This document shows positions 4,406-56,599 of a stretch of 64,000 nt of DNA, one piece after another. The DNA comes from a virus (taxonomy: Duplodnaviria; Heunggongvirae; Uroviricota; Caudoviricetes), in IMG/VR virus record IMGVR_UViG_3300038829_000114; one strand, written 5' to 3'. Made by a program: the position numbers and the translations under genes. Positions within the stretch are counted from its first letter, which is position 1. Each line of letters starts with the position of its first letter. The notes under the pieces are model-generated. The model ran no database searches and was not told the DNA's origin. It saw nothing but the letters and a program-made list of their open reading frames with translations.

Positions 4406-4641
4406 CAAGTATCATTCTATCTGATACTATGTATTCATACGGTTGAGAAACCACCGGACAAGCGGGGAACTCTGTTTAGAGACTCCACCACATACTCATA
4501 CCTCCCCATTATATATTACCATGTGGTGTAACGCTTGTCAAACTGGAACACAACACCCCTCGAATAGAGACACTAAGATAACTAAATTGTTTTGGTGTTG
4601 TCTCTATAGTATAATTTATTCATAACGTGAAAGGGGACATT

Positions 4642-7889: not shown

Positions 7890-7935
7890 ATAGAGACACC
7901 GGCTTTCCCTTTCACCGGTCGTCTCTATTTTTTTG
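7890..7935 (+). terminator. rho-independent terminator (ATAGAGACACCGG…CCGGTCGTCTCTAT + TTTTTTT)
   Basis: 17-bp stem with a 7-T run, immediately followed by a TGTTATACT promoter. Confidence 0.7.
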
Positions 7936-7950
7936 TTATACTAAGACATT

Positions 7951-8445
7951 ATGAATACACTACTAAAAATATTGTTTTTAGACTTCGACGGTGTTTTGAA
8001 TACAGACGCCGATGTAAGCCTAGATAGAGACGCCTTACGGGTTGATCTAATCGGTTTACTAAACACTGTCTTAACGGTTACGGGCGCTGTTGTCGTAGTC
8101 TCTAGTGATTGGCGGCTACACCATACCGTAGATCAATTGACCGACATGCTTAGAGCCAAAGGATTTACAGGCACAATCATTGGAGCTACCTCACGCCTAG
8201 ATTTTCAGATAATTGGATTTGATAGTGATGGGGACTCCATACACCAAAAAGTATCTCGCGCTGACTTAATCCTAGCTTGGTTAAAAGACAATGGAATGCT
8301 TGATGCTAAGGTTGCTATTGTTGACGATGTTGAACCAACCTGGGATGCGAACCATCCTTTGTTTAATCGAATTGTACTGACTGATGGTAAAATGGGATTG
8401 TCGCCTATTGATGCAGCCGATCTTATTAAGTTGTTGAAGGATTAG
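7951..8445 (+). CDS. HAD-superfamily phosphatase-like protein
   Basis: N-terminal FLDFDGVLNT (DxDG[VT] motif I). Paralogous to 31325..31807. Confidence 0.55.
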   Translation: MNTLLKILFLDFDGVLNTDADVSLDRDALRVDLIGLLNTVLTVTGAVVVVSSDWRLHHTVDQLTDMLRAKGFTGTIIGATSRLDFQIIGFDSDGDSIHQKVSRADLILAWLKDNGMLDAKVAIVDDVEPTWDANHPLFNRIVLTDGKMGLSPIDAADLIKLLKD

Positions 8446-8929: not shown

Positions 8930-9358
8930 ATGTCATTCTTTCTTGCAACATTTTTATATTCGTTGGGCGTCAATATTGGTACAGCCCTTACTGCTTTAGT
9001 TTGTCTATGTATTGTTATCGCTTGTATCTCAGGTTTTTGTTTTATGTGTATTAGCGATGCGATTGATAAGGGTGTTCATGTATCGGATGATGATAAAGCT
9101 ATCTATAAAAAGTCGCTTACATTTATGAAGCGCTCTGTAATCTATTTTCTCCCCGTGCTTTTGTTCCTAGACTTTGCATGGCCTACGGAAAAAAATCTAC
9201 AGCTAATGCTCGGCGCTTATGTTGTGGATAGGACCATCGAACTCCCCGGCGTTAAAGATGAACTCAAACGCTTGCCAGGTGAGGCCCTAAAAACGGTAAA
9301 TGTAAGTTTGGAGTCGTTGGCTGGGTTTGCTAAAGACCTGACCAAAGTCATTGACTAA
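8930..9358 (+). CDS. membrane protein (tandem paralogue)
   Basis: Same architecture and C-terminal motif LAGFAKDLTKVID. Confidence 0.6.
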   Translation: MSFFLATFLYSLGVNIGTALTALVCLCIVIACISGFCFMCISDAIDKGVHVSDDDKAIYKKSLTFMKRSVIYFLPVLLFLDFAWPTEKNLQLMLGAYVVDRTIELPGVKDELKRLPGEALKTVNVSLESLAGFAKDLTKVID

Positions 9359-9361
9359 CTC

Positions 9362-9408
9362 TAATAGAGACACTATCAATACCTCGTGGTAAAGGTGTCT
9401 CTATTTTG
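9362..9408 (+). terminator. terminator-like hairpin TAGAGACAC…GTGTCTCTA + TTTTG
   Basis: 9-bp AGAGACAC stems with a T-run. Confidence 0.55.
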
Positions 9409-9891: not shown

Positions 9892-10124
9892 TGACACGGC
9901 TCAAAACCATTAGAGAGATGACCAACGCGGATTTAATTGCTGCGCTTAATCAAATCTCTCACCTCGAATCCACAGGCTTATGGCCCAATGGAATGCCCTA
10001 CTGGGTTGAACTCGTAGGCAATGCCCTTAACATAGGCATTGACATGAATAAAGCCTGTGAGGAAATCTTTCGGGAAGCTGCCTATCGTTTCAAAGCTATG
10101 GCCGAACTTGACAAGGTTAGCTAA
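9891..10124 (+). CDS. hypothetical protein
   Basis: ORF. Confidence 0.5.
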   Translation: MTRLKTIREMTNADLIAALNQISHLESTGLWPNGMPYWVELVGNALNIGIDMNKACEEIFREAAYRFKAMAELDKVS

Positions 10125-10145
10125 GTTGTGCTATAGTAATCCCTT

Positions 10146-10481
10146 ATGGTCAAAGACAAAAGACAAGTAAGGGAACTAAAAGGCTTTCGGGCACGACCTT
10201 ACGCGCATGGCTGGGAACTACAAGCTAACTACGTTTATTTTGAGGGTAAAAACAGCGGTAAAAGTGTGTGGGAAGCTGATTCGTTTTTCAGCACCTTTGA
10301 AAACACTTGCTTAGCAATCATAGATAAGAAACTACAGCTACTATTAGATAACGAAGACCCCCAAAATCTCGTAAAAGCCATCCAAGAAGCTAAAGCCGAA
10401 GCTATCAAAGTAGCTCAAGAATTCAAAATTACATACCAAGAAGCTCACAAAGTGGTTAATAACGGGGCCGATACCGAATAG
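10146..10481 (+). CDS. hypothetical protein
   Basis: ORF. Confidence 0.55.
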   Translation: MVKDKRQVRELKGFRARPYAHGWELQANYVYFEGKNSGKSVWEADSFFSTFENTCLAIIDKKLQLLLDNEDPQNLVKAIQEAKAEAIKVAQEFKITYQEAHKVVNNGADTE

Positions 10482-13068: not shown

Positions 13069-13370
13069 TGCGCCCGGAGTTTGTCAACACAATAGAGACC
13101 ACCCTTGAAAACTTTCGTTTGAGTCTCTATCATATGCCTTTTTCGTTCCATATAGACGATTGGGGTACTGTGGGGGCCTCTGTATTCGTTTATTTCGCGG
13201 CAAAACCGGATTTAAGGGTAGAGCTACCTAAATTCAAAAGAGTCTTAAAAAAGGCTGGATTTAGGGTTTCCTGGTATGACCGTTATCCAGCGGACCATAC
13301 TGATAAAACAATTAAAATGAGTGTAGATTTGATTAGTTGGGCTGGACCTATACTGAACCCCCAACTCTAA
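13068..13370 (+). CDS. hypothetical protein
   Basis: ATGA overlap. Confidence 0.5.
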   Translation: MRPEFVNTIETTLENFRLSLYHMPFSFHIDDWGTVGASVFVYFAAKPDLRVELPKFKRVLKKAGFRVSWYDRYPADHTDKTIKMSVDLISWAGPILNPQL

Positions 13371-13447
13371 TAGAGACACCTTAAACACATAGTTGCGTTA
13401 GTAGTCTCTATAGGTTACAATTTATTTATCTTGAAAGGATGGAAACA

Positions 13448-13938: not shown

Positions 13939-14026
13939 TAACACTCTAATAGAGACACCTTAAAATCTTAGTTGTTATTAAGTGGTCTCTATGATAAAAT
14001 ATTCTTACTTGAAAGGATGTAAACAA

Positions 14027-14736: not shown

Positions 14737-14775
14737 TGACGGTTGAGATACACCGGACGAAGAAAGGGGAAGTCT
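14737..14775 (+). repeat. conserved 39-nt element TGACGGTTGAGATACACCGGACGAAGAAAGGGGAAGTCT at the predicted 5' end of a transcript (copy 1 of 2)
   Basis: 36/39 identical to 18731-18769. Both copies follow a TGTTATA(C/A)T -10 box and a paralogous Cys-protein gene. Confidence 0.5.
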
Positions 14776-14949
14776 GTTGTCAACCCCCTAAAAATGATTA
14801 GTCTCTTCCATACTATTAATATAACAGAGAGACCACACCCTGTCAAATAGAGAATAAGGTGTCTCTATAAGAGGGGTTATCATGGAACTGTGGCATGGTG
14901 TCTCTATGTACGTTATAATCCTTAGTAACATTTTGAAAGGGAAAATCAA

Positions 14950-15747: not shown

Positions 15748-15761
15748 ATAGACACTGACTA
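15748..15761 (+). repeat. gene-junction motif TAGACACTGACTA directly abutting ATG 15762 (no SD)
   Basis: Member of a 9-copy motif family. Confidence 0.5.
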
Positions 15762-16169
15762 ATGGCATTAAACCTAACTCACATTACTAAAAAGCTATTC
15801 CCGGACGCTATTCATGAACCTAGTACAATAAACTATGGTCATTGTTATAACTGGGCTTTCGCTGCTTATCTCTATTACAAAGATAAAAAAACAGTGTCTC
15901 TATGGTCAGACCTAGAGTCATATCATGCGTTCATTAAGATAGATCAAAAATTCTATGACGCTGAAAGCCCTAAAGGGGTTTATGACCAATTAGACTTACA
16001 ATGCTATGTCCGGGCACATTGGAATAGAGATAGATTCATATTTGACAAAATGGATGAAATATACTTCCGTCACTATTGGGGACGCCGGGGTAGGTGTGGC
16101 TTTATGCCCTATGATACTTTCGTAAAAGCACTTAAGTTGCGTATATCGTCACCGTCTGATACAATGTAA
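15762..16169 (+). CDS. hypothetical protein
   Basis: ORF after the junction motif. Confidence 0.55.
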   Translation: MALNLTHITKKLFPDAIHEPSTINYGHCYNWAFAAYLYYKDKKTVSLWSDLESYHAFIKIDQKFYDAESPKGVYDQLDLQCYVRAHWNRDRFIFDKMDEIYFRHYWGRRGRCGFMPYDTFVKALKLRISSPSDTM

Positions 16170-16172
16170 ACT

Positions 16173-16478
16173 ATGTTTAAACCAATTAACTTAAAAGTGG
16201 GAGATACTGTCGAATGGCTATCACACAAACCGATTGTGGGCGATAGAGACGGTAAAACATATGTAGACCCTTTCCGTATGCGTGGAAAGGTTGTTAAAAT
16301 CTATGAGCCTTATAGAGAAACCTACATAGACGATGACTTGGAAGAAAATATTAACTATTCCCATGGTAAGGCATCTGTAGCCTTTCCTTATTCAAATTAC
16401 GGGCTTCATTCTGATAAGTGGCCCGCTCCCTTCATTATATTTCATGAAGACGAAGATACATACTGGAGAAAAGCATGA
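16173..16478 (+). CDS. hypothetical protein
   Basis: ORF. Confidence 0.55.
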   Translation: MFKPINLKVGDTVEWLSHKPIVGDRDGKTYVDPFRMRGKVVKIYEPYRETYIDDDLEENINYSHGKASVAFPYSNYGLHSDKWPAPFIIFHEDEDTYWRKA

Positions 16479-16675
16479 ATTATTTCTATGTAGGCCGTTC
16501 AGACTGTAAACCGATGACCGCTAAACAATCCGGGCTGGGCCGTCCATGCAAACACCGCAAATTCAAGTCCTATAAAAAAGCTGTGGAATTCCTTTCTAAT
16601 CACCCGCAACAACATCTGGTTGTAAAGGGTTATTTCTATCTTGATGCCCCTGAAGGCTTCAACCCTCAACTATAG
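16475..16675 (+). CDS. hypothetical basic protein
   Basis: ORF with ATGA overlap. Confidence 0.5.
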   Translation: MNYFYVGRSDCKPMTAKQSGLGRPCKHRKFKSYKKAVEFLSNHPQQHLVVKGYFYLDAPEGFNPQL

Positions 16676-16678
16676 AGA

Positions 16679-16690
16679 AGACACTGACTA
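16679..16690 (+). repeat. junction motif AGACACTGACTA, followed by an 11-codon mini-ORF whose TGA overlaps ATG 16723
   Basis: Motif family member. Confidence 0.45.
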
Positions 16691-16722
16691 ATGCCTAAAC
16701 ACAACTGGAGAAAAATATACCC

Positions 16723-16917
16723 ATGAGTGATTCAAATGTGTTAAACATAGCTTTATTAATAGTGCTTATTGTTATCTCTATCGCTTTAAGGATACAAGGG
16801 TTTCCTTTCTTTGATACCAAAAAACCCCTAAAAGCTACTACCCTATTTTGGGTATTATGGTTTGTTGGTATATTTGCAATCTGCCGGGGCTTCTGGTGGA
16901 TTGTAATAGGGTTTTAG
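16723..16917 (+). CDS. small membrane protein
   Basis: Two hydrophobic helices. Confidence 0.45.
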   Translation: MSDSNVLNIALLIVLIVISIALRIQGFPFFDTKKPLKATTLFWVLWFVGIFAICRGFWWIVIGF

Positions 16918-16920
16918 ACA

Positions 16921-17187
16921 ATGGGCCTAAAAGATGATTTAGAGACAATTAAGAACCTCCCAAAAGGGGCTTCGACAGTGCCTGACCATGGCCCAAAAAT
17001 CTTGTTTAATAATGCCCTACAACACCTAGAGACAGCTAAAGGGTTATTTGAACGGTGTGTAATACAGTTGCCGCAAGAACATATTATGATTCCAAGTATA
17101 ACTAATGCTAAGCTGGATATAGACGATATATTTGATAGAATTAGGTATGTTTCACGAATAGCTCGTTTTGATAGAGAAGATATCTAA
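16921..17187 (+). CDS. hypothetical protein
   Basis: ORF. Confidence 0.5.
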   Translation: MGLKDDLETIKNLPKGASTVPDHGPKILFNNALQHLETAKGLFERCVIQLPQEHIMIPSITNAKLDIDDIFDRIRYVSRIARFDREDI

Positions 17188-17432
17188 TGAATAACAAAAC
17201 CGACTGGATTGGTGATGACGGCCAACACAATAAAATAGTCACAAGATTCTCTAAAAGACGACTTAAAGACCACTCTTACCATGTTGTGCTTAATCCCATT
17301 GGAGAGGGGTATAATACTATCTGGGAAGCTCATTTAAACGGGTCGTCAAAAATCGCTCAAGGGCATACAGTTGATAAAGCAATTGAAAACCTGTTTGCCT
17401 ATTGGGATGCCCTGCCCCTTTGGGAAGACTAG
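17187..17432 (+). CDS. hypothetical protein
   Basis: ATGA overlap. Confidence 0.5.
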   Translation: MNNKTDWIGDDGQHNKIVTRFSKRRLKDHSYHVVLNPIGEGYNTIWEAHLNGSSKIAQGHTVDKAIENLFAYWDALPLWED

Positions 17433-17442
17433 ACACTGACTA
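17430..17442 (+). repeat. junction motif TAGACACTGACTA spanning the upstream stop TAG and abutting ATG 17442
   Basis: No room for an SD. Confidence 0.5.
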
Positions 17443-17639
17443 TGCAAATACTTTTTACTATCTATGCCATCGGTGCCTTATGGGTTCTGGTGGGTTCTAT
17501 AATTACTTCATTAGCCGAGGCCGGGGGCATATATAGAATCAAATGGTTTTTAATGGATCTGATCGTCTCTATATTTTGGCTCCCACTCTTTATCTATCTC
17601 TTTATTGATGAGTCTTTATTTGAGCATGATGTTTACTAG
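17442..17639 (+). CDS. small membrane protein
   Basis: Hydrophobic. Confidence 0.5.
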   Translation: MQILFTIYAIGALWVLVGSIITSLAEAGGIYRIKWFLMDLIVSIFWLPLFIYLFIDESLFEHDVY

Positions 17640-17649
17640 ACACTGACTA
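17637..17649 (+). repeat. junction motif TAGACACTGACTA (stop TAG + motif + ATG 17649)
   Basis: Identical arrangement to 17430. Confidence 0.5.
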
Positions 17650-17873
17650 TGCAACGTAAAATAACTAAAAAACTTTCCTACTTAGAAAACTTTGCTAGAG
17701 AAGAAACACGAAAGCAAAACCGCATAAAGAGATTGGGACTATGTAAGTGTGGAAAAAATCCACAGGCAGATAAATTACATACATGCCCTTTTGCTGAACA
17801 GATAAACGAAGATAAGGAATCTCTATGTAATTGCTGTGAAGATTGTACATACACTTGTGCAGAGAATGTTTAG
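17649..17873 (+). CDS. Cys-rich small protein
   Basis: CKCGKNP…CPF…CNCCEDCTYTC. Confidence 0.5.
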   Translation: MQRKITKKLSYLENFAREETRKQNRIKRLGLCKCGKNPQADKLHTCPFAEQINEDKESLCNCCEDCTYTCAENV

Positions 17874-17883
17874 ACACTGACTA
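17871..17883 (+). repeat. junction motif TAGACACTGACTA
   Basis: Motif family member. Confidence 0.45.
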
Positions 17884-17892
17884 AAGAATATC

Positions 17893-18150
17893 ATGACCAC
17901 AATATCAAAAAAACCTCCTGAATACTTAACAGATGCTTTAGTAGAGATTTTGGCAATTATGTTCAGTGAAATAGAGCTACGCACAAAGGTTAAAGAAGTC
18001 TCTATACCAATTCAATATAAATCCCGCATAGCCTATAAAATGATTGATAACACTCTCTGGGGCGCTAATGTCGTCTTTACTGATGGCGATGTGCTCCAAG
18101 TGTCAGATGAGCTAACCCCTCACATAGAGACACCTTCGACACTGACTTGA
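17893..18150 (+). CDS. hypothetical protein (its stop lies inside a GACACTGACTTGA motif copy)
   Basis: ORF. Confidence 0.5.
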   Translation: MTTISKKPPEYLTDALVEILAIMFSEIELRTKVKEVSIPIQYKSRIAYKMIDNTLWGANVVFTDGDVLQVSDELTPHIETPSTLT

Positions 18151-18210
18151 TAAATACATATCACCTTGTTACAATGTCTCTATGAATACAGAACTACAAA
18201 GGAAACTAAC

Positions 18211-18471
18211 ATGCTGCTAACAAAGAAAGCCTCAGTCCTAAAAGCCTTAGAAAAAATCACCTACGATCAAGTGGATGTTATTCATGGCCTTGCTGAATCC
18301 CGTGGTCTTGATGTAGAGTCTTTAGACATTAAAGACTATAAGGAACTCATTCAAGAAGAAGCTGAGTTTAGTTTCGATTGTGGGGATAAATCTGAATCAG
18401 ATCTAAAGTATTCCCTTGATCTCTATTCTATTGCCCTACGAATCCAAGACCCTCAGTACAAACAAGCATAA
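18211..18471 (+). CDS. hypothetical acidic protein
   Basis: Internal ATG with RBS AAAGGAAACTAACATG preferred over the track start 18166. Confidence 0.45.
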   Translation: MLLTKKASVLKALEKITYDQVDVIHGLAESRGLDVESLDIKDYKELIQEEAEFSFDCGDKSESDLKYSLDLYSIALRIQDPQYKQA

Positions 18472-18481
18472 GATCGTCTCT

Positions 18482-18688
18482 ATGACATTACTCGGAGAAG
18501 TTGGCTGCTACGTTCTTGATCTCTATTGTAATCAATGTCAAGTTGAGCATGTTCTTATTGATACCAGTAAACAATTCACAGGGCATACCCTAGCACAAGC
18601 ACGTAAAGCCGCTAGAAAGGCTGGCTGGGTTACTGGTAGAAAGAAAGTGCTATGCCCCGGACACAACCCATCTAATAGAGATACCTAA
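18482..18688 (+). CDS. Cys-rich small protein (paralogue of 14477..14701)
   Basis: MTLLGEVGCYVLDLYCNQC…ARKAARKAGWVTGRKKVLCP. The start lies inside a GTCTCTATG motif. Confidence 0.55.
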   Translation: MTLLGEVGCYVLDLYCNQCQVEHVLIDTSKQFTGHTLAQARKAARKAGWVTGRKKVLCPGHNPSNRDT

Positions 18689-18730
18689 CTCTCAATTTGA
18701 CAACACACCTCAACCCTGTTATAATGATCA

Positions 18731-18769
18731 TGACGGTTGAAATACACCGGAGGAAGAAAGGAGAAGTCT
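18731..18769 (+). repeat. conserved 39-nt leader element (copy 2)
   Basis: TGACGGTTGAAATACACCGGAGGAAGAAAGGAGAAGTCT, after the -10 box TGTTATAAT. Confidence 0.5.
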
Positions 18770-18936
18770 ATATAGAGACTCCTAAACAAAACAATTCTCT
18801 CCCATATTACTAGTATCCCATAGAATCACCAAATTGTCAAACCAACTTGACAGTATCTCTATTTGAGGTAACATAGAGACAATCCCACAACTTGACAACA
18901 CCTGTGGTACAATATCCTTACATTAAAGGAGTCTCT

Positions 18937-19089
18937 ATGACCGATTTGCGTACTAGAATTATTTATGAAATTTCTTGGGGAATGACTGTTGCGGAAATAG
19001 AAGAAAATAACAGTTTTATTGAGAGAGAAACAAAAAAAGTGTTTATGTCTCTAATGGAAATACTATCTATTGTAAAGGAGTCTCTATGA
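18937..19089 (+). CDS. hypothetical small protein
   Basis: Start context TAAAGGAGTCTCTATGAC, which is duplicated at 19073. Confidence 0.45.
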   Translation: MTDLRTRIIYEISWGMTVAEIEENNSFIERETKKVFMSLMEILSIVKESL

Positions 19090-19199
19090 CTATTTGGCGA
19101 TTTATCTGTAATTGTGGTAACATCTGGCAATCTAAGTACCCCTCCGATAACAAATGCCCGGAATGTGGTCACGCTGCTGCCCGTAAGGAAAAAGACTAA
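19086..19199 (+). CDS. 37-aa zinc-ribbon peptide (CNCG…CPECGH); not in the track
   Basis: Manual ORF with the identical start context TAAAGGAGTCTCTATGAC. Confidence 0.4.
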   Translation: MTIWRFICNCGNIWQSKYPSDNKCPECGHAAARKEKD

Positions 19200-19237
19200 A
19201 GTTGCAATATCTCTACTCCCCTGGTAAAATACCCACC

Positions 19238-19456
19238 ATGGAACCAGACTATAGAGACAAATCAGGTAAATACCACAAAATTTACCACCATATCTCCCGC
19301 TATTCAGGCGATACAACTATCTACCATATCGTCCTGCACTACTCTAAGGGAACTTGGCATGCCTCTTTCCAGAATTCTAGTCTCTATGGTAAGGGACCAT
19401 CTATGGAAACCGCTATAAACGATTTACTAGACTTTACCGACAAGGAGGGGGACTGA
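19238..19456 (+). CDS. hypothetical protein (the track start 19202 is a TTG codon; ATG 19238 is an alternative)
   Basis: ORF. Confidence 0.4.
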   Translation: MEPDYRDKSGKYHKIYHHISRYSGDTTIYHIVLHYSKGTWHASFQNSSLYGKGPSMETAINDLLDFTDKEGD

Positions 19457-19659
19457 TGCCTAAAAAGAAACAAACACGTCAAAAGCCTTTAAAATACCTT
19501 AAAAAGAGGGTCTCTAAGTATACCTGTGCCACATGTGATTCACCACTAGAGACTACTATATCGAAATCTAGTATCTCTATCCTTGTGACCCCATGTAAAA
19601 TCTGTTTATATAACCAGGCTGAAAAAAGCTATGTTGCGGGGAAATATTGGATGGTATGA
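19456..19659 (+). CDS. small basic Cys protein
   Basis: CATCDSP…CKIC. Confidence 0.45.
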   Translation: MPKKKQTRQKPLKYLKKRVSKYTCATCDSPLETTISKSSISILVTPCKICLYNQAEKSYVAGKYWMV

Positions 19660-19688
19660 GAATCTCTTAAGTTGACAAAAGACACTGA

Positions 19689-19702
19689 CTAAGCTACAAT
19701 AA
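19689..19702 (+). repeat. junction motif AAGACACTGACTAA lying in the spacer of a TTGACA-17-TACAAT promoter
   Basis: TTGACA 19682-87 and TACAAT 19705-10. Confidence 0.45.
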
Positions 19703-19717
19703 AGTAAGGAACATACT

Positions 19718-20119
19718 ATGGAACTAACTACATCTCAAGAATACATGCTAAAAGTCCTTGATGACACGGCTAAGTATTATAACTATCACAATAGGTCTGT
19801 AGTAGAACGACCATCGCTTAATAAAAGTCATTGTCTCTATCGTAGCCCTGATGGTAAAGCCTGTGCTATAGGTCGCCTTATCCCAAATAACATAGCATCT
19901 ATCTTAGACAGCTTTATGAGTTCTGGCGTTCAAGAATTTGATGTGTGGGATTTAATCAAAGACCTAGAGACTATCAAACCAGCGCCACAATCTTTCTGGA
20001 AGGATTTACAAGCATTCCATGATGGCGACGTATGCTGGGATGAAGCAGGCTTAACCGCTTTTGGTAATTCTCAATACGGTCATATCAAAAAACTTATTTT
20101 AAAAGGAACCTACGCATGA
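19718..20119 (+). CDS. hypothetical protein
   Basis: RBS TAAGGAAC. Confidence 0.55.
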   Translation: MELTTSQEYMLKVLDDTAKYYNYHNRSVVERPSLNKSHCLYRSPDGKACAIGRLIPNNIASILDSFMSSGVQEFDVWDLIKDLETIKPAPQSFWKDLQAFHDGDVCWDEAGLTAFGNSQYGHIKKLILKGTYA

Positions 20120-20304
20120 AATACATCCCCATATTAGCCTTAGTCGCTGTCTTGGGCTGTCAACAACAATTACCAAGTGTACAAGAAAATTGTATCCGCG
20201 TCCATACACTAGACCAAGAGATTTGTCATGTGGTCATAAATGGTATGAATTGTGTCTCTATGGATGGCTTCGAATCCGGGGCCATTACCTGCAATTGGAA
20301 ATAG
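20116..20304 (+). CDS. small lipoprotein
   Basis: Signal peptide MKYIPILALVAVLGC with a lipobox. Confidence 0.5.
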   Translation: MKYIPILALVAVLGCQQQLPSVQENCIRVHTLDQEICHVVINGMNCVSMDGFESGAITCNWK

Positions 20305-20325
20305 AGACTACACCCACTAACCATA

Positions 20326-20556
20326 TTGATAATGACTCTCAATAACGATATATATAAATTCAACATCCATATAGAGACTCCACAAGGTACTGAAGCTATC
20401 TTAGTCTCTATGGGCCAATTTGACTCTAAAATCGTGGGAACATGGTTATCCTATGCTGAGACCCAACTTCTAATCAAACGCCTTAAAAAAGCCTTAAAAA
20501 CGGCTCACAAGGGTACTCCCAATACCTACTGCGATTGTGGGGAGTGTTTATGGTGA
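20326..20556 (+). CDS. hypothetical protein
   Basis: ORF. Confidence 0.5.
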   Translation: MIMTLNNDIYKFNIHIETPQGTEAILVSMGQFDSKIVGTWLSYAETQLLIKRLKKALKTAHKGTPNTYCDCGECLW

Positions 20557-20570
20557 TTAGACAGTGACTA
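20557..20570 (+). repeat. junction motif variant TTAGACAGTGACTA
   Basis: Directly follows the stop at 20554-56. Confidence 0.4.
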
Positions 20571-20778: not shown

Positions 20779-21267
20779 GTGTCGAAGAAGGAATCCAGGA
20801 TGTGGAAAAAGACCTCTCATGAACGAATTGCTCCTGGTTTATGGTTCACAATAGAGACTCCAAGTTATCTACATTTACGGGACTATGTTATGGAAATAGA
20901 CGATACATTGAAGCGAATATTTGAGTTAAACCATAAGAAGCTGGATAGTGGTTGTTGGGAGTGGTGTGGTTATCATAGTAAGGATTATGGTTATGCTTGT
21001 TTTTACTATAAGCATAGGATGGTCATGGTACATCGTTTGGGATATGGGATAGAGACTAAGGTAAGTGATCTAAAGGATGTACCTAAAGTATTGAAGCATA
21101 GTTGTGGTAATCGTGGTTGTGTAAATCCTAGTCATCTCTATAAGGCTATAAAGGGAGCTACGAAGCATAAGGTCTCTGGCAAGGATAGATATGAGGTAGA
21201 GAGACTAAGGGTGCAGAAGGCTTTTGATGAATATTTAAAGGCTGTAAAAGCGGGGGAAGAGGATTAG
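20779..21267 (+). CDS. HNH homing endonuclease (HNH_3-type)
   Basis: CWEWCG…HRLGY…KHSCGNRGCVNPSHL; homologous to 57286..57804. Confidence 0.65.
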   Translation: MSKKESRMWKKTSHERIAPGLWFTIETPSYLHLRDYVMEIDDTLKRIFELNHKKLDSGCWEWCGYHSKDYGYACFYYKHRMVMVHRLGYGIETKVSDLKDVPKVLKHSCGNRGCVNPSHLYKAIKGATKHKVSGKDRYEVERLRVQKAFDEYLKAVKAGEED

Positions 21268-21311
21268 TCGATGTCTAGGGTATTAAGAGATAGAATATGA
21301 GCTATTAGTCG

Positions 21312-21566
21312 ATGTCTAAAAGGTTATATGCTGATAGGAGAGCGCTGGATGGTGGTTTAGCTTCTGGCTGGCGGTATGTAAAGAAGGGTGGAAAAGTTAA
21401 ATTCGGTGGAGCTTACTATACAAATCCAAAACTCTGTAAAATTGTAGGTGAGTATGTATTTATAACGAATGTTGATTATTGGGGGCAAGATGTTGAGATT
21501 CACCGTGGGGCGTTTGGGTGTTCTGGATGGTTTTGTAAAGCGGTAATAGAGACGAGGAGTAATTAG
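21312..21566 (+). CDS. hypothetical protein
   Basis: ORF. Its start region is duplicated (TTAGTCGATGTCTA x2). Confidence 0.5.
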   Translation: MSKRLYADRRALDGGLASGWRYVKKGGKVKFGGAYYTNPKLCKIVGEYVFITNVDYWGQDVEIHRGAFGCSGWFCKAVIETRSN

Positions 21567-22711: not shown

Positions 22712-23527
22712 ATGGTAAAAGTAATTAAATCACAGAAAGATCTAGATAAATTTTTAGAGGGCGCGGGTGACGAACCAGTTCTGTTAGAAGGGTTTACTGG
22801 AAAATTTATTGGGAAACAGTTTTGTATCTTGACTGGGAATTCCCGTGGTGTGTTTTGGGAGAATTCCAGTGGTGAGTTTAGGGAGAATTCCAGTGGTGTG
22901 TTTAGGGAGAATTCCAGTGGTGTGTTTAGGGAGAATTCCAGTGGTGTGTTTAGGGAGAATTCCAGTGGTGTGTTTAGGGAGAATTCCAGTGGTGAGTTTA
23001 GGGGGAATTCCCGTGGTGTGTTTTGTGGGAATTCCAGTGGTGAGTTTAGGGGGAATTCCCGTGGTGTTCTCTATGATTTCGCGCATGCTCATGTAATGAA
23101 CAACAACAAAATAGAGAAAATTTCCCCAAAAGCCTCTATAACCAAGGTATCTTACCCAAAATCAGTAAAAGGGTGGTTGTCTCTAAAGGGTATTAAACCA
23201 GATAAAAAAGGTAATGTAATCCTTTGGAAGACTGTAAGAACTGACGGTTCTGATTTCAGAACAGGCCAAATCAATTATCTTTCTGGTGTAGCAGTTGCGC
23301 CGGATTGGGATAAGGATGCAGGCATAGAGTGTGGTAACGGTTTACATTTGGCGGATAGCCAACAAGCTGCTATTATGTTTGTCCCTACTGGTGATGACTA
23401 TAGGCTATTAAAGGTAAAGGCTAATATAAAAGATATTGTTGTTTTTGGTGGCAATCCAGAATACCCTATGAAATGCCGGGCCAAGCAATGTGTGTTCGTA
23501 GAAGAAATTGATCCGAAGACTATTTAA
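22712..23527 (+). CDS. protein with about 11 tandem 8-aa repeats (NSSGVFRE) and a C-terminal globular domain
   Basis: 24-nt DNA repeats at 22838-23085 stay in frame; RBS AAAAGAGG. Confidence 0.6.
   Translation: MVKVIKSQKDLDKFLEGAGDEPVLLEGFTGKFIGKQFCILTGNSRGVFWENSSGEFRENSSGVFRENSSGVFRENSSGVFRENSSGVFRENSSGEFRGNSRGVFCGNSSGEFRGNSRGVLYDFAHAHVMNNNKIEKISPKASITKVSYPKSVKGWLSLKGIKPDKKGNVILWKTVRTDGSDFRTGQINYLSGVAVAPDWDKDAGIECGNGLHLADSQQAAIMFVPTGDDYRLLKVKANIKDIVVFGGNPEYPMKCRAKQCVFVEEIDPKTI
22838..23085 (+). repeat. 24-nt tandem repeat x ~11 (GGAGAATTCCAGTGGTGTGTTTAG) inside a CDS; each unit carries an EcoRI site
   Basis: Direct reading of near-identical units with occasional G/A and C/A variants. Confidence 0.85.
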
Positions 23528-33457: not shown

Positions 33458-33793
33458 ATGAGTACAGCGTATAGAATTGCAAAAGAGGCGGCTGATAAGG
33501 GTATTAAGGTAGAACTGTTACCTAACAACGTTTTTAGGGTTTATGGGTTTTCTAAGTCTGGTTATGCGGATATAAACGACGAGATAGATTATTCTGTAAC
33601 CGTAAAATGCCGATACAAAAGCGAACATACGGTAATTGAATTTGATGGGCTTGCTGAAATTGCGTATGACTGGTACAAACGGTATAGAGATGTTGCTACT
33701 TTTAGTGAACCAGACCCAAGTTGGCTACCGGTTTTTATTGAAAGAGGTTGGGTTACTGTTGCAAGCCAGCCCGTATATACGACACATCGTTAA
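33458..33793 (+). CDS. hypothetical protein
   Basis: ORF. Confidence 0.55.
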   Translation: MSTAYRIAKEAADKGIKVELLPNNVFRVYGFSKSGYADINDEIDYSVTVKCRYKSEHTVIEFDGLAEIAYDWYKRYRDVATFSEPDPSWLPVFIERGWVTVASQPVYTTHR

Positions 33794-33819
33794 GACACTA
33801 ACTTAGGAGATTATTACCA

Positions 33820-34662: not shown

Positions 34663-34840
34663 TATGGAAAACTTTAACGATCTTATTTTGTATTGCATGC
34701 GTAAAGACATTGCTTTTCACTATAGCCCAGACGGTCATGGAAGCGTTCGTTGGCGACTTGAATATGCTGGGCGGGCATACTACGATACAACCTTAGAACG
34801 AGCTTTAGCTCAAGTTAAAGCTGACGATGCTTGTTTGTAA
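34655..34840 (+). CDS. hypothetical protein
   Basis: ORF. Confidence 0.45.
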   Translation: MNNMENFNDLILYCMRKDIAFHYSPDGHGSVRWRLEYAGRAYYDTTLERALAQVKADDACL

Positions 34841-34882
34841 TTAGTCGGTGTCTATGGTATACTACTATAATAGGAGTGAGTA

Positions 34883-35557: not shown

Positions 35558-35572
35558 AAGACAGTGACTAAT
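35558..35572 (+). repeat. junction motif TAAGACAGTGACTAATAT immediately before ATG 35575; the only copy outside the 15.7-20.6 kb cluster
   Basis: Motif family member. Confidence 0.4.
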
Positions 35573-35574
35573 AT

Positions 35575-35829
35575 ATGAAAATAATTTTAATTTTCTTTGC
35601 TCTTTATGCTTATGTTGTTATAACCCAGCTAATGGTTTTGTTGTATCTATGTGGTACAGAAAAACCTACATTAAAAGCATATCTAGGTATTGTCATCGGA
35701 TGGCCAGTTATTCCTTTGGGATGGCTTATCTACACGGCAACAAGACCTGTTGATAGATCGCTTGAGACTATTTTCAGGCTGTCCTTAAAACACTTTGGTA
35801 AGAATGTTGAATACAAACCTAAAATGTAA
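35575..35829 (+). CDS. membrane protein
   Basis: Two TM segments. Confidence 0.5.
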   Translation: MKIILIFFALYAYVVITQLMVLLYLCGTEKPTLKAYLGIVIGWPVIPLGWLIYTATRPVDRSLETIFRLSLKHFGKNVEYKPKM

Positions 35830-51521: not shown

Positions 51522-51928
51522 AAACGGTTTTGACGCTTAAACTTTTTATACTCGTTCTTAAAGTCTGACCAGTTCTTGGATGGAACTAAAAGAAATGCTC
51601 TAGTGACGGGACTCACAGCTACGTAAGTTTTACCATCTATTTGAACCTCTTCAGTATTAAATACATCAAGATCGCGTAAACGTTTTAAAAATGATTTTAT
51701 GGTCGTAACTGGGTAGTTAACTTTATCAGCGAGTGTAGCAGGTTCCTGGGCCATCGAAATGTCTTTAATTATCTCCCCCGCTATAGTAAATTGTTTTTCG
51801 CTATGTATAAACTCACCGCCAGCATCATATTCAGCCCCATCTGCCTTAATTTCGTGTTTTTCTGGGTAGAGGTATGCTTGGATATCCAAAAACTCTTTTG
51901 TGGGCTTTAAACGTTTAAAATCAATCAT
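51518..51928 (-). CDS. hypothetical protein
   Basis: ORF convergent with tilS. Confidence 0.5.
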   Translation of the reverse strand: MIDFKRLKPTKEFLDIQAYLYPEKHEIKADGAEYDAGGEFIHSEKQFTIAGEIIKDISMAQEPATLADKVNYPVTTIKSFLKRLRDLDVFNTEEVQIDGKTYVAVSPVTRAFLLVPSKNWSDFKNEYKKFKRQNRF

Positions 51929-51993
51929 AGAGACTATATAAACCAGTAGTTAGGGTTAGCTATATATCCCTAACTTAGAGAAAATAAAAAAGA

Positions 51994-54900
51994 TTAGTAA
52001 ACAACGGTCTCTTTACCGAAAAGAAGTTCGTATATATCTTCTGGAATCTGGCGTTTGTATTTACGGGCAATTTTCATAGCCAACACACCCTGTTTAGGAG
52101 TAAGTTGTTGGAGCAAGCCAAGTTTTTTACCAATGTCTGCATCTAATTTATTAAAACCCATTCCATCTAACTCCCTAGCTCCGTCGCAGTATCCAGCAAG
52201 CAGTCGAATAGCAATATGAGCAGCTTTCAATTGGGCATCAGTAATCTTAACAGCCTCTTCTTCAAGCTCTTTGCGATCTAACTTGATTGGTTCTGGAACA
52301 GGAATGATAGGCTGTGATCGGGTAGTCTCTAAGTCTTCATCAAGAGCTTTGTCAATAATCTCTTGTTTTTCAATAATAGTCTTAGCCATGGTTGCGTCAA
52401 TAGAGCCTTCCAAAACCAAGTGTTGAACTAATACTGGGGTCATTTTTGTAACGTGACGAACGCGATCCTCTGCTTGAGAAACGTTGCCTGGAACCCAATC
52501 TTCTTCAATCATTAGAATATGGCTTGATACCGCCAAATTAATACCTACCCCGGCAGCACCAATTGTTCCAATAAACAGGTTGCAAGTAGGATCGTTTTGA
52601 AACCGCTCAATCTCTTCCTGACGCTTGGTTACAGGAGTATCTCCAGTAATTACAGCAGCATTAGGAAACTCAGCCCGAATAATAGAGACTACCTCTTTGT
52701 GGTGAGCAAACACAACAAGTTTATAATTAGGGTCGTTGTCATCAAAAATATCTGAGATATAGTCAACAACCAGCGGAGCCTTGGCGATAGCTGTCTCTCT
52801 ACGAACTGCCGAGATTTCTTCAAAAGACAGCTTAACACCATCTTGTAAAGATTTTACAGCATTTGCATATTCAGTTGGATCATCTGACACCTTGGCTAAT
52901 TCAACAGCAGCTTTAAGAGAGTCTAAACGTTCTGTATATTGAGACTCTTTTTTAAGAGCTTTTAGGCATGTTTTATCAGCAGGTATTTCGATAACCTGAC
53001 GCTGCTTGAGAGGCATTTCTGGGAACACTTCTTCAAATGTACGCCGGATCATAATAGAGGCGCGGAGTTTTGTTTGAAGCTCATCTAGGTTTGAAGCACC
53101 GTCATAATGATGGCCATATTGATCTGTATAGCCATTGCAGTAGCGTTTACTGAAATAGTAGAAAGATTTCCAGGTATTTGAATCAAGCGAATTGACCAAC
53201 GTCCACAATTCTTTCGGACGGTTTACAATAGGCGTACCTGTCATGTAAATCTTTTTCTTGGCTGGAATAGGTTTGATTTCCCATTCATATGTTTTTGGGG
53301 CCAACTTACCCAAAATATTCTGGGTTCTTTTTGTTTTATAATTTTTACAGTTAGAAACCAACACCCCGTTGGCAAAATAATTATTATTATCCGCTATCTC
53401 TATGTTGTAAACAAATTTATTTTCTCCACCACTAATTCTAAATTTTCCAATACTTCCTTGTTCTTGAATCGAACAACTCTCCACCCTAGAAAATTTAGTA
53501 TAGACTCTTTCCGTTTGTCCAGAAATCTCCACTTTTTTGTGTCGTGGCTTCTTCCATCTATCTCTACTGCTAACATTTTCTCTGGAATTCCTATATCTAC
53601 TTTGTAGCAGTGAGGAAGACTTGGAAATTTTCCTTTTGCTGGAGACGTTTGAATTATATACTCTGTGTTTTCCATTAAATTTAGCTTTTCCGCTAAAAGT
53701 TTTTGAGGAACCGTAAGCTGGCCGTTCCCACCGCGACTTAAAAAGGTTCTCCCTACCATTTTCTTCCGCATTTTTTCTACTGATTCTGGGTTCGACATTG
53801 GGTTGTTTTTTTTCATTCTTTCCGATGATTTTGGGTTTGGCTTTCCTGTAATAGCTGCCACCGCTTTTTTTATAGCTTTTCTCGAATGATCTCGTCGTCC
53901 TGGCAACGTCATCATCCACACACCACGACAATGGTTTGAACAAAATCTTCTTTTGTAAATCCCCTTTGAATAGTGAGGTTTTACTAAAAACTGCTTTTTG
54001 CAGGTTTCGCACTCCAAGCTTATTTTTGGCTTCAAAGTTGCCAACCGTATTTTTTCTCTCACTTCTGGTTGAGAATTCGTCCACTTCGCGGAACATTTTA
54101 GAGAACAAAATCTTCGAGTGTTTTTCCCTAGCTTTTCTGCGGTAAAAATCTTTTGGCAAAAACCACAGGTTTTCTCTATTTTTGATCTTCCGCGCTTCGA
54201 CATAATCTTGCCTTGTTAGTGAATAAATTTTATGGTTAGATGTACAACCAAATTCCCCATACTTATGTTTTACAGACACTAAATCTTCGTACAAAGGATT
54301 AGAAAATCTGGTTAGTATATCTTTATATTCAAGACAATTTTTATTATGATTAAAGGATAACACTTTTAAGCTGAGATTTTTTGTTACAATATCCCCTATT
54401 TTTTTTGTACCCTTATCAGTATAGACTTCAGTATCATATGGAAAACAATAATGGGCTTCGTCTAGGATTAACAAATCCCAATCTATGCCATCAATTATAG
54501 TCTTATGTCTGGACACTAAATCATAATTTATAATGACAATATCAGTATCTGGGAAGGTGTCCCCCGTGACTACACCTATATTTCGTTTTGTAACTAACCA
54601 TTTGTTGGCTTCGTTTCTCCAATTGAGCTTCACAGTTGCTGGGCAAATTATAAGAATTTTACGAATGGTTTGTACGTTGTTGATAATACCAAGAGCTTGA
54701 ATAGTCTTCCCAAGTCGCATAGCATCAGCTAAGAGAATGTTTGGCTTGGCGATACCAAAAGCAATGCCAGCTTTTTGATAGGGATAGTATTCTAAACCTT
54801 TGGGTCTGATAAAATCTACAGCCGATTCGACGGCTTGGGACATCTCGATAGTTTTATAGAACTCTTCTAAACGCTTTTTTACATCATCAGAAGCATAATT

Positions 54901-55050
54901 AACGAGTTTGTAAGCTCTATCAGCATCGTAGGTGTACCAGTATTTTTGCGCCCCGTCCCACCAGAAATCGGCGGATTTGGGGATATGTTTCTCAGAATAC
55001 TGGGAAACAACATAATAGCGGCGTTTGATATCGTCGTACTTTAATTCCAT
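51994..55050 (-). CDS. SNF2-family DEAH-box helicase interrupted by an in-frame intein (1018-aa precursor; about 652 aa after splicing)
   Basis: GKT Walker A, LILDEAH motif II immediately followed by a Cys; C-terminal helicase motifs (TGTPIVN, FAHH, QAEDRVRHV). Confidence 0.8.
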   Translation of the reverse strand: MELKYDDIKRRYYVVSQYSEKHIPKSADFWWDGAQKYWYTYDADRAYKLVNYASDDVKKRLEEFYKTIEMSQAVESAVDFIRPKGLEYYPYQKAGIAFGIAKPNILLADAMRLGKTIQALGIINNVQTIRKILIICPATVKLNWRNEANKWLVTKRNIGVVTGDTFPDTDIVIINYDLVSRHKTIIDGIDWDLLILDEAHYCFPYDTEVYTDKGTKKIGDIVTKNLSLKVLSFNHNKNCLEYKDILTRFSNPLYEDLVSVKHKYGEFGCTSNHKIYSLTRQDYVEARKIKNRENLWFLPKDFYRRKAREKHSKILFSKMFREVDEFSTRSERKNTVGNFEAKNKLGVRNLQKAVFSKTSLFKGDLQKKILFKPLSWCVDDDVARTTRSFEKSYKKSGGSYYRKAKPKIIGKNEKKQPNVEPRISRKNAEENGRENLFKSRWERPAYGSSKTFSGKAKFNGKHRVYNSNVSSKRKISKSSSLLQSRYRNSRENVSSRDRWKKPRHKKVEISGQTERVYTKFSRVESCSIQEQGSIGKFRISGGENKFVYNIEIADNNNYFANGVLVSNCKNYKTKRTQNILGKLAPKTYEWEIKPIPAKKKIYMTGTPIVNRPKELWTLVNSLDSNTWKSFYYFSKRYCNGYTDQYGHHYDGASNLDELQTKLRASIMIRRTFEEVFPEMPLKQRQVIEIPADKTCLKALKKESQYTERLDSLKAAVELAKVSDDPTEYANAVKSLQDGVKLSFEEISAVRRETAIAKAPLVVDYISDIFDDNDPNYKLVVFAHHKEVVSIIRAEFPNAAVITGDTPVTKRQEEIERFQNDPTCNLFIGTIGAAGVGINLAVSSHILMIEEDWVPGNVSQAEDRVRHVTKMTPVLVQHLVLEGSIDATMAKTIIEKQEIIDKALDEDLETTRSQPIIPVPEPIKLDRKELEEEAVKITDAQLKAAHIAIRLLAGYCDGARELDGMGFNKLDADIGKKLGLLQQLTPKQGVLAMKIARKYKRQIPEDIYELLFGKETVVY
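53350..54447 (-). mobile_element. intein (366 aa) inserted in helicase motif II
   Basis: N-terminal block CFPYDTEV…TSNH (TxxH); C-terminal blocks VYNIEIADNNNYFANGVLVSN followed by the extein Cys. The central 380 codons are open but low-complexity K/R-rich. Confidence 0.65.
53400..54203 (-). mobile_element. homing-endonuclease gene nested inside the intein but in a different reading frame: 2x Zn-ribbon, NUMOD3-like repeats, C-terminal DUF559/Vsr-like PD-(D/E)xK nuclease
   Basis: Own SD (AAGG) 8 nt before the ATG. Motifs RRFCSLKCSAKW / RRFCSNHCRGVW and AVEIDGRSHD…GWRVVRF. Frame offset from the intein confirmed by codon phase (55050 vs 54203). Confidence 0.6.
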
Positions 55051-55088
55051 AAATATTATAATACCACAGTGATGGTATTACCGCAAAT

Positions 55089-55984: not shown

Positions 55985-56584
55985 ATGCGTGATGACTATG
56001 TAATGACTTTGTTATGTGCTTATTCCAAACGATACGATCAGATAAGTAAATTCCACCACGACTTTAGGCAATACATACTCAAAGCGCCGGGGTCTCAGCA
56101 TAAGCATCAAGCCTGGGAAGGTGGGTATATAGATCACTTAACGGAGTGTTTTCGTATTGCCAGAGCAACATATACTGCATTAAAACAAATCCGTCCATTA
56201 CCGTTTGATATAAGCAGTGTTTTTGATGTGCTGTATTTTCATGACGTTAGTAAACTTTTTCTATATACAGATGCAAAAACTCCTTTAGGCGTCAATGTAG
56301 CTATCTCTGTTACTAATCCAGTGGAAAAATTGGTTGCAGAATCTTACTCAATAGTATTTACCCAAGAAGAAATTAATGCTATTTGCTATATTCACGGCGA
56401 ACCAGATTATCTCTATGACAAAGAAACCCGCATTCTAAATGAGCTTGGAGCCTTCTGCCACTCATGTGATGTACTGTCTGCCAGAATGTGGTATAATCAT
56501 CCTACTAAAGAAGAATTACAACCATCAACTGAGAACATAAAGGTGGAACTAACATCCGACAAAGAACCTATTGCCGGATGTTAA
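55985..56584 (+). CDS. possible HD-domain phosphohydrolase
   Basis: H…(YFHD) HD dyad; weak. Confidence 0.4.
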   Translation: MRDDYVMTLLCAYSKRYDQISKFHHDFRQYILKAPGSQHKHQAWEGGYIDHLTECFRIARATYTALKQIRPLPFDISSVFDVLYFHDVSKLFLYTDAKTPLGVNVAISVTNPVEKLVAESYSIVFTQEEINAICYIHGEPDYLYDKETRILNELGAFCHSCDVLSARMWYNHPTKEELQPSTENIKVELTSDKEPIAGC

Positions 56585-56599
56585 GTCGGTGTCTTAGTT

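Follow-up and report, generated by a model that had tools for sequence, protein, structure and literature searches.

A 13-bp box at gene junctions and within promoters of an uncultivated groundwater phage

In a 64,000-nt stretch of phage DNA (IMG/VR record IMGVR_UViG_3300038829_000114; hereafter the window), a conserved 13-bp box with the consensus (T/A)AGACA(C/G)TGACTA recurs at gene junctions and overlaps promoters, and comparison with a related phage identifies it as a conserved junction element and mosaic breakpoint. We favour, tentatively and short of calling it probable, the reading that the box is a DNA-level site for a putative sequence-specific regulator, operator-like or stoperator-like in kind, lodged in minimal junctions that double as mosaic breakpoints. 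The phage is uncultivated and originates from a groundwater metagenome; the ENA contigs ERZ909581 and ERZ909586 (PRJEB10139) are 100% identical to the window, the longest known measuring 107,508 bp, and our survey covered ~72.9 kb, namely the window and L174, an 8,884-bp locus added upstream of it, out of a genome no shorter than 107.5 kb. A preliminary description had proposed that the box replaces the Shine-Dalgarno (SD) sequence in a cluster of small genes, and its interpretation is partly supported by the results below.

Occurrence and conservation of the box

Exact matches to AGACASTGACTA (at 15750, 16679, 17431, 17638, 17872, 19680, 20559 and 35559) number eight, all on the + strand, against 0.01 expected from shuffled sequence, and the relaxed pattern WAGACASYRACTW gives 13 matches against 0.03 expected. 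Conservation is limited to the 13 bp, with flanks that carry zero information, and about ten degenerate copies accompany the exact ones in the 72.9 kb. A gene boundary is the site of all eight exact copies and of the degenerate copy at 18136; the best copies all lie at gene junctions or promoters, and intragenic copies occur at about chance level. The preliminary description had counted nine copies, each at a gene boundary and eight of them within 15.7–20.6 kb. The repeat is real, and its placement at boundaries held in the motif search, but seven exact copies fall in that interval and the eighth lies at 35.56 kb, the ninth, at 18136, having two mismatches (Table 1).

Six of the eight exact copies end close to the next ATG, at distances of −2, −2, 0, 0, +4 and +9 nt, within the 10 nt first described; the copy at 19679, which lies 27 nt from the ATG of gene 19718, and the copy at 20558, with no start nearby, depart from that rule. 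Likewise, only three copies (17430, 17637 and 17871) provide, with their TAG, the true stop of the gene before them; the TAG closes merely a spurious open reading frame (ORF) over tRNA-Leu at 15749, and at 20558 the stop is a TGA one base earlier. Behind the second copy, the mini-ORF at 16691 overlaps (ATGA) the start of a gene with a GGAG of its own, the membrane-protein gene 16723-16917. Uniformity is greater among the naked copies (six identical 12-mers) than among those in the promoter cassettes described below, and boxes delimit each of three single-gene units in a row. Copies 3 and 4 have 18 identical bases in common (TAGACACTGACTATGCAA), which suggests that the junction was duplicated upon gene insertion.

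Table 1. Positions of box copies, reversed variants and an associated promoter in the window
Feature	Sequence	Coordinates	Strand	Context
Box copy 1	TAGACACTGACTA	15749..15761	+	34 nt past tRNA-Leu; abuts ATG of gene 15762-16169, without SD
Box copy 2	AAGACACTGACTA	16678..16690	+	2 nt past stop 16673-16675; abuts ATG (16691) of 10-codon mini-ORF
Box copy 3		17430..17442	+	TAG is stop of gene 17187-17432; last A belongs to ATG of gene 17442-17639; gap 9 nt
Box copy 4		17637..17649	+	TAG is stop of gene 17442-17639; last A opens ATG of Cys-rich gene 17649-17873
Box copy 5		17871..17883	+	TAG is stop of Cys-rich gene; ATG of gene 17893-18150 9 nt downstream
Degenerate copy, 2 mismatches	TCGACACTGACTT	18136..18148	+	in promoter cassette between arms ATAGAGAC (18124) and GTCTCTAT (18176)
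Sigma-70-type promoter with box copy 7 in spacer	TTGACA-17-TACAAT	19672..19700	+	
Box copy 8	TAGACAGTGACTA	20558..20570	+	1 nt past stop TGA 20554-20556; no start codon nearby
Box copy 9	AAGACAGTGACTA	35558..35570	+	4 nt before ATG of small membrane-protein gene 35575-35829, without SD
Degenerate copy	AAGACACTAACTT	33792..33804	+	overlaps stop 33791-33793; then normal SD (AGGAG), ATG 33820
Scaffold match	AAGTCATTGACTA	9345..9357	+	3′ end of gene 8930-9358, just before promoter cassette
Reversed variant	TAGTCGATGTCTA	21265..21277	+	TAG is stop of HNH gene 20779-21267
Reversed variant	TAGTCGATGTCTA	21306..21318	+	includes ATG (21312) of SD-less gene 21312-21566
Reversed variant	TAGTCGGTGTCTA	34842..34854	+	1 nt past stop 34838-34840; 3 nt upstream of extended −10 (tgGTATACT)
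Reversed variant	AAGTCGGTGTCTT	56583..56595	+	overlaps stop 56582-56584; 4 nt before GTG start 56600

Usable relatives came solely from a homologue search with the GP88 protein (identity of 64% for L282, 4.5 kb long, 73% for L285, 1 kb long, 57% for L286 and 52% for L284), and the motif comparison covered L282, L285, L286, L001 and L002. L282 and L285 carry the same repeat arms and promoter cassettes as the window, and L286, L001 and L002 have none of the motifs. The Cys-rich gene 17649-17873 has an ortholog (52% identity) in L282, an ORF that had not been called; TAA-AGACACCGACTA-ATG stands before it and TAGACACCAACTAaaggaactatcATG after it, and its flanking genes are unrelated to those in the window. 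The counterpart of copy 4 is AAGACACCGACTA, with an ATG immediately after it, that of copy 5 is TAGACACCAACTAaaggaactatcATG, followed by an unrelated gene, and a third L282 copy, TAGACACTGACTTGCTA (2786), overlaps a cassette −35 as the counterpart of 18136. DNA homology between L282 and the window ends at the ATG after the box, and the adjacency of box and ATG is kept at the Cys-rich ortholog in both phages despite a diverged N-terminus, AGACAC and ACTA being the most conserved blocks of the box in this comparison. The interval that separates GP88 from the Cys-rich gene holds a single, unrelated gene in L282, equipped with an ordinary promoter and SD, and tRNA-Leu and seven genes in the window. 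This comparison of synteny gives direct support to one option of the preliminary description, that of a ‘boundary sequence’. Searches of IMG/VR for the motif combined with ATG, and for each of two cassette patterns, turned up single chance matches only, and scans of one metagenome and one genome collection with the cassette pattern likewise returned chance matches; four Sulfurimonas matches considered as a clue to the host proved to be conserved coding sequence, and homologue searches with genes 19718 and 17649 found only the query itself.

Promoter copies, symmetry and a possible regulatory role

The most strongly over-represented word of the genome is ATAGAGAC/GTCTCTAT; its 51 and 43 copies in the 64 kb are concentrated in the first 32 kb. 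Some copies of this 8-mer fall within genes, and others form inverted-repeat arms on either side of the −35 hexamer of sigma-70 early promoters (for example at 13370-13411, 13949-13992 and 9364-9404, and also in L174 1-8884, L282 and L285); it is probably the binding site of a global phage regulator. The cassettes, which lie between early genes, consist of a stop codon, (c)tc(t/g)aATAGAGACacc, 22–29 nt and GTCTCTAT, followed by 3–5 nt, a −10 hexamer (TAnAAT or TAAACT), ~12 nt, GAAAGG(A) and ATG, with the −35 hexamer 5 nt before GTCTCTAT. Exactly at this −35 position, five L174 cassettes (1108, 3303, 3919, 4235 and 8050) carry box-like 13-mers (AAGACACTGGCTA twice, TAGTCAGTGGCTA, TAGACATTGACTG and TAGACAGTGACTT), and the copy at 18136 shares bases with TTGATA, the −35 of a TTGATA-17-TACAAT promoter. 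Upstream of gene 19718, TTGACA (19672-19677) and TACAAT (19695-19700) enclose box copy 7 (19679-19691), which ends 3 nt before the −10; the preliminary description had noticed this promoter with the box in its spacer, and we correct its limits to 19672-19700. The reversed variant at 34842 stands in the same register relative to its −10 as copy 7, and copy 20558 is followed by ATAGAGAC and a promoter-rich spacer, then by the HNH gene 20779-21267. Because the promoter-embedded copies lie upstream of the transcription start, action through RNA is excluded there.

The box is also a partial palindrome, TAGnCA-n-TGnCTA. This dyad scaffold, with at most one mismatch, occurs at 18 sites in the 72.9 kb against 2.7 ± 1.6 expected, and junctions and cassettes hold 17 of the 18. 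Reversed variants (WAGTCGRTGTCTW) number four, at the gene junctions 21265, 21306, 34842 and 56583, where they again overlap stop or start codons, a pattern that was defined post hoc after inspection of the data. Occurrence in both orientations is natural for recognition of double-stranded DNA and awkward for an RNA signal.

From these features we tentatively infer that a protein binds the box and affects transcription. The regulator would be a phage or host protein, and the box would belong to the same lineage-specific system as the ATAGAGAC...GTCTCTAT early-promoter cassettes. Where the box lies on a −35 or in a promoter spacer, a protein attached to it would either block RNA polymerase from binding or remodel that binding, as at an operator, whereas in the 15.7–18 kb operon, where the box fills the whole intergenic gap, it may stop or modulate read-through in the manner of an L5 stoperator. 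At such a minimal junction the TAG end would be reused as a stop and the ...CTA end as the beginning of the ATG, leaving no room for an SD, and the SD-less neighbours would be translated by termination–reinitiation or by SD-independent initiation on unstructured RNA; use of the repeated junction as a breakpoint for small-gene swaps between related phages would then be a side effect. Because the arms overlap codons just as the box does (TAATAGAGAC at stops, GTCTCTATG at starts), we take the stop/start overlap to reflect compaction rather than a translational role, and the absence of an SD to result from the squeezing of 13 bp into so small a junction.

A precedent for such a role is offered by the stoperators of Cluster A mycobacteriophages, recognized by the L5 repressor gp71 (PMC9283540), which are likewise 13-bp sites repeated many times in the genome, with a conservation that far exceeds that of the adjoining sequence. 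In L5 these 13-mers occupy promoters and short intergenic spaces, oriented with transcription (PMC9283540), and the box divides in the same way, with promoter copies at 19679, 34842, 18136 and the five L174 cassettes and intergenic copies at 15749, 16678, 17430, 17637, 17871, 20558 and 35558. Stoperators are mostly transcription-oriented, and all eight exact boxes are co-directional, but the four reversed variants lie at + strand junctions. Furthermore, the L5 site is fully asymmetric and monomer-bound, its phage repressor (with helix-turn-helix and stoperator domains) blocking both initiation and elongation, whereas the box is a partial palindrome with reversed variants, and the sequence of the L5 site, GGTGGMTGTCAAG, is unrelated to that of the box (TAGACACTGACTA). 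Unlike in L5, no repressor homologue is found here among the top 25 Pfam/PHROG families listed per scan of the 144 window ORFs (which likewise include no helix-turn-helix, ribbon-helix-helix or sigma family, no RNA polymerase gene family and no recombinase or integrase).

Several findings weigh against a DNA-binding regulator. No binding protein was found among the listed families, with ~73 kb of the at least 107.5-kb genome covered. The eight exact copies share one asymmetric sequence and one orientation, which also fits a directional promoter or RNA signal, and the inner dyad positions (T8 and G9) differ in the relative (CCGA, CCAA), so that the symmetry is not strictly kept. None of the five genes that abut a box bears an SD, compared with nine of 11 at box-free junctions of 9–31 nt (Fisher p = 0.005; in the two SD-less exceptions a −10 lies beside the ATG). 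Gene 15762 lies downstream of a tRNA with no upstream ORF, which makes upstream translational coupling impossible; it misfits compaction and is the main reason why an RNA signal survives as a rival. Lastly, the comparative evidence comes from one 4.5-kb relative.

Alternative readings

The proposal that the box stands in for the SD, as a signal for translation, re-initiation or coupling, is not supported as regards its primary function, given the promoter copies and the reversed variants. In addition, wherever the spacing of box and ATG leaves space for an SD, one is found (19718, 33820, 16723 and the L282 copy r2), genes 16173, 16921 and 17187 in the same 15.7–18.2 kb stretch are SD-less and have no box either, and the box has neither the complementarity to the anti-SD (CCUCC at the 3′ end of 16S rRNA) that marks an SD 5–10 nt before a start codon nor the purine-rich core of a ribosome-binding site. 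What survives of the proposal is that starts abutting the box are SD-less, with SD duplex energies (with CACCUCCUUA) of +0.5 to −3.8 kcal/mol; 106 of the 142 predicted genes reach −5 or lower. Even this does not extend to every gene that follows a box, as 19718 (AAGGA) and 16723 have an SD. SD-less genes make up about a quarter of the total and fall into three groups: those that begin within or immediately next to the stop codon of the gene before, leaderless-type genes with a −10 hexamer 4–9 nt before the ATG (e.g. TGTTACAATgtctctATG at 2045 and 18184), and genes that abut a box or an arm.

We consider it unlikely that the box is a new type of SD-independent expression signal, with the promoter-embedded and reversed copies being secondary. 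Such a signal would be either an RNA element for starts or restarts at the abutting AUG, with no anti-SD pairing, or a 13-bp promoter or cleavage site that gives rise to leaderless mRNAs for a timed subset of early genes. In the former, itself doubtful, transcribed AGACACUGACUA before the AUG would attract ribosomes, place them, or serve as the target of a translational regulator, whether on SD-less mRNAs or in re-initiation past the upstream stop. The ends of six of the eight exact copies and of the L282 copy r1, which range from 2 nt inside a true start codon to 9 nt short of it, agree with this, as do the SD contrast between abutting and box-free junctions, the lack of an upstream ORF for coupling at gene 15762, the unstructured start regions (no RNA structure was found around the box and start regions) and the box-adjacent ATG that the Cys-rich ortholog keeps in both phages. 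There is also precedent in the start-associated sequences (SAS) of Cluster K mycobacteriophages, 13-bp motifs that are asymmetric with symmetric outer parts and lie 3–7 bp before starts, sometimes with the upstream stop inside (PMC3203893). Like SAS and extended SAS (ESAS), the box has 13 bp, symmetric outer bases and, in its exact copies, one orientation, lies a few bases before starts of non-structural genes of different families, at times with the upstream stop within the motif, and has inverted repeats nearby (ESAS there, the ATAGAGAC/GTCTCTAT arms here; PMC3203893). The function of SAS was still without a test in 2025 (PMC12699233).

The two motifs nevertheless differ. SAS contain the SD core AGGAG at the position of a ribosome-binding site, whereas the box has neither this core nor any complementarity to the anti-SD, and a separate SD occurs at 19718, 33820 and L282 r2, an SD thus being kept where space permits. 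For comparison with the 3–7 bp of SAS, the distance to the start is −2 to +9 nt in six of eight copies, a span of 11 nt, with one copy 27 nt upstream in a promoter and one without a start (20558); the box also often overlaps the ATG, and occurs within promoters and far from starts. The promoter-spacer and −35 copies lie upstream of the transcription start, and reversed junction variants would be transcribed into an unrelated RNA. RNA structure, an RNase III site and a known RNA family were each considered for the box and rejected.

The other form, which takes in the RNA-processing or leaderless-mRNA option of the preliminary description and which we regard as improbable, is a compact promoter used by a phage-modified or phage-encoded RNA polymerase, or an RNA cleavage site, with 5′ ends at or beside A13 that yield leaderless or near-leaderless mRNAs. 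This phage does have a leaderless layout (−10, 6–9 nt, ATG, no SD) at 2045, 7951, 10146, 16173, 18184, 18482 and 20410, and the geometry of TAGACA-CTGACT-ATG equals that of TACAAT-GTCTCT-ATG; the exact copies are all co-directional with genes; and 15.75–17.9 kb holds no sigma-70 promoter matching at least 10 of the 12 −35/−10 positions, the best candidates being weak, at 9 of 12, apart from an extended −10 near 16160. A comparable layout is known from Deinococcus-Thermus, where −10 motifs 6–7 bp before ORFs give leaderless mRNAs (PMC12340547), and the nearest helicase homologues are in Thermus phages, though at just 35–36% identity. The box resembles that layout in placing a hexamer beginning with TA 6–7 nt before an ATG without an SD, and genuine −10 hexamers so arranged exist in the same phage. 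However, the hexamer (T/A)AGACA ends in A and so departs from TANNNT, lacking the invariant T at −7 of a sigma-70 −10 and any upstream −35 or TG extension; the geometry fits copies 1–4 and L282 r1, but several copies are too far from the ATG, and those at +4, +9 and +11 would produce short SD-less leaders. Unlike the Deinococcus-Thermus −10 motif, the whole 13 bp is conserved, although the relative has C at position 8, and reversed copies would fire counter to gene direction. The listed families of the window ORFs also include no RNA polymerase or sigma gene.

Conventional promoter elements were rejected as well. A sigma-70 −35 and, for the naked copies, a MotA-box-like activator site would call for a −10 at 16–18 nt downstream, where there is none; TAGACA has no −35 17 nt upstream that would make it a sigma-70 −10; and the spacing misfits a sigma-54 −24/−12 promoter.

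Also improbable is that the box is primarily a recombination junction, akin to the promoter early stem-loops (PeSLs) of T4-like phages or a target of an endonuclease or recombinase, that serves cassette insertion, duplication or exchange without a role in expression. The Cys-rich gene is bracketed by boxes in L282 and the window among unrelated neighbours, with homology ending at the ATG after the box and wholly different gene sets between it and GP88; the 18 bases shared by copies 3 and 4 fit a duplication when gene 17442-17639 was inserted; three consecutive units are box-bounded; and the HNH gene 20779-21267 lies between a forward and a reversed copy. PeSLs, like the box, are conserved repeats with a regulatory character that separate small early genes where the genome is plastic (PMC2839356, PMC4122927), and they serve as exchange points (PMC4122927); both coincide with breakpoints of indels or gene swaps between related phages, in the case of the box at one or two junctions and in one relative. 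The PeSL design of an inverted repeat with an early promoter is, however, that of the larger cassettes ATAGAGAC-N22-29-GTCTCTAT-(-10), whereas the naked 13-bp box is much shorter and neither a promoter (no −10 16–18 nt downstream) nor a stem-loop. Thirteen base pairs are also very short for homologous exchange, no recombinase or integrase is among the families listed, and the overlap with promoters in fixed registers favours a regulatory role. Any conserved junction sequence will look like a breakpoint, which may be a consequence rather than a function, and one relative only was available for comparison.

Least credible, and in our view very improbable, is that the boxes are decayed or hitch-hiking cassette fragments (arm-like TAGACAC plus −35-like TGACT) with no present function, for although ATAGACAC is one base off the arm ATAGAGAC, CTGACT resembles the −35 TTGACT, L174:4235 has TAGACATTGACTG with a proper −35 and a fused form, ATAGAGACACTGACTT, occurs at L174:8724, the naked copies are more uniform than the cassette copies, are restricted to junctions and persist at the orthologous ones in L282, the relative with 64% identity in GP88.

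Short conserved junction repeats are known in few phage groups, namely the L5 stoperators, Cluster K SAS and T4 PeSLs, and among these a mechanism has been demonstrated for stoperators only. The box is an independent example in a lineage unrelated to those three, and its genome combines three layers, inverted-repeat promoter cassettes, the 13-bp junction box and many leaderless-type starts. If the favoured reading of the box as a regulator-binding site is correct, roadblock-type control would extend beyond actinobacteriophages; if its action is instead at the RNA level, the box would represent a start signal independent of the SD, of which few are known. As the box marks points of small-gene swaps, it is useful for placing module boundaries in metagenomic phage genomes.

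Other features of the phage

The window has a G+C content of ~40% and three tRNAs, and nearly all of its genes lie on the + strand, most being small ORFs without homologues. Its recognisable proteins are of accessory or replication type and include an intein-bearing SNF2 helicase, two RNA ligases, radical SAM proteins, HNH endonucleases and GP88. The best matches of the helicase are in Thermus phages at the low identity noted above, no sequenced phage being close, and near and distant DNA searches of a phage collection gave no match except a tRNA. All ten cluster proteins examined are singletons at 90% identity (10/10), and the Cys-rich protein of gene 17649-17873 has no Pfam and no PDB match. 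The SNF2-family helicase gene, 51994-55050 (−), is among the few minus-strand genes and is interrupted by the intein (Intein_splicing match at residues 212–567). Gene 22712-23527 holds six tandem 24-nt repeats (GTTTAGGGAGAATTCCAGTGGTG...) at 22857-22999, which give the protein an 8-residue repeat.

Many genes have a −10 hexamer, often TG-extended, 4–9 nt before the ATG and no SD, at 2023-2045, 7930-7951, 10124-10146, 16155-16173, 18150-18184, 18465-18482, 20390-20410, 51928-51950 (−) and 55050-55075 (−). This resemblance to Deinococcus-Thermus may hint at the translation habits of the host.

Some of the reversed variants form pairs with other copies. The forward box at 20558 and the reversed ones at 21265 and 21306, the latter two being a 13-bp direct repeat 41 nt apart, bracket the HNH gene 20779-21267 (HNH_3 / His-Me finger) and its promoter region, and the inverted pair 34842/35558, ~716 bp apart, brackets two genes; both arrangements may reflect coincidence or cassette mobility. 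RNA of the reversed variant TAGTCGGTGTCTA (34842-34854) could pair with box RNA (15749-17883) at all 13 positions, one of them G-U, which makes an antisense interaction with box transcripts conceivable.

A ~45-nt conserved element, CGGTTGAGAnAC(n)CCGGA-gaAGAAAGGrGAAGTCT, lies 7–8 nt past the strongest TTGACA-17-TATAAT promoters and is followed by 150–250 nt free of ORFs (window 4440-4500, 14740-14800 and 18734-18795; L174 1843 and 6868; L282 1015 and 3511; L285 163). It has no Rfam match at the gathering threshold, and pairing between this promoter-proximal RNA and the box was rejected, as the candidate stretch varies among copies; the elements are candidate phage small RNAs or leaders. Lastly, GC skew is ~0 to 0.1 in 1–20 kb and strongly positive in 20000-50000 (0.13–0.31 to 38 kb, 0.08–0.18 beyond), and the shift sets in just past the box cluster and the spacer at 20.6–20.8 kb that is rich in promoters.

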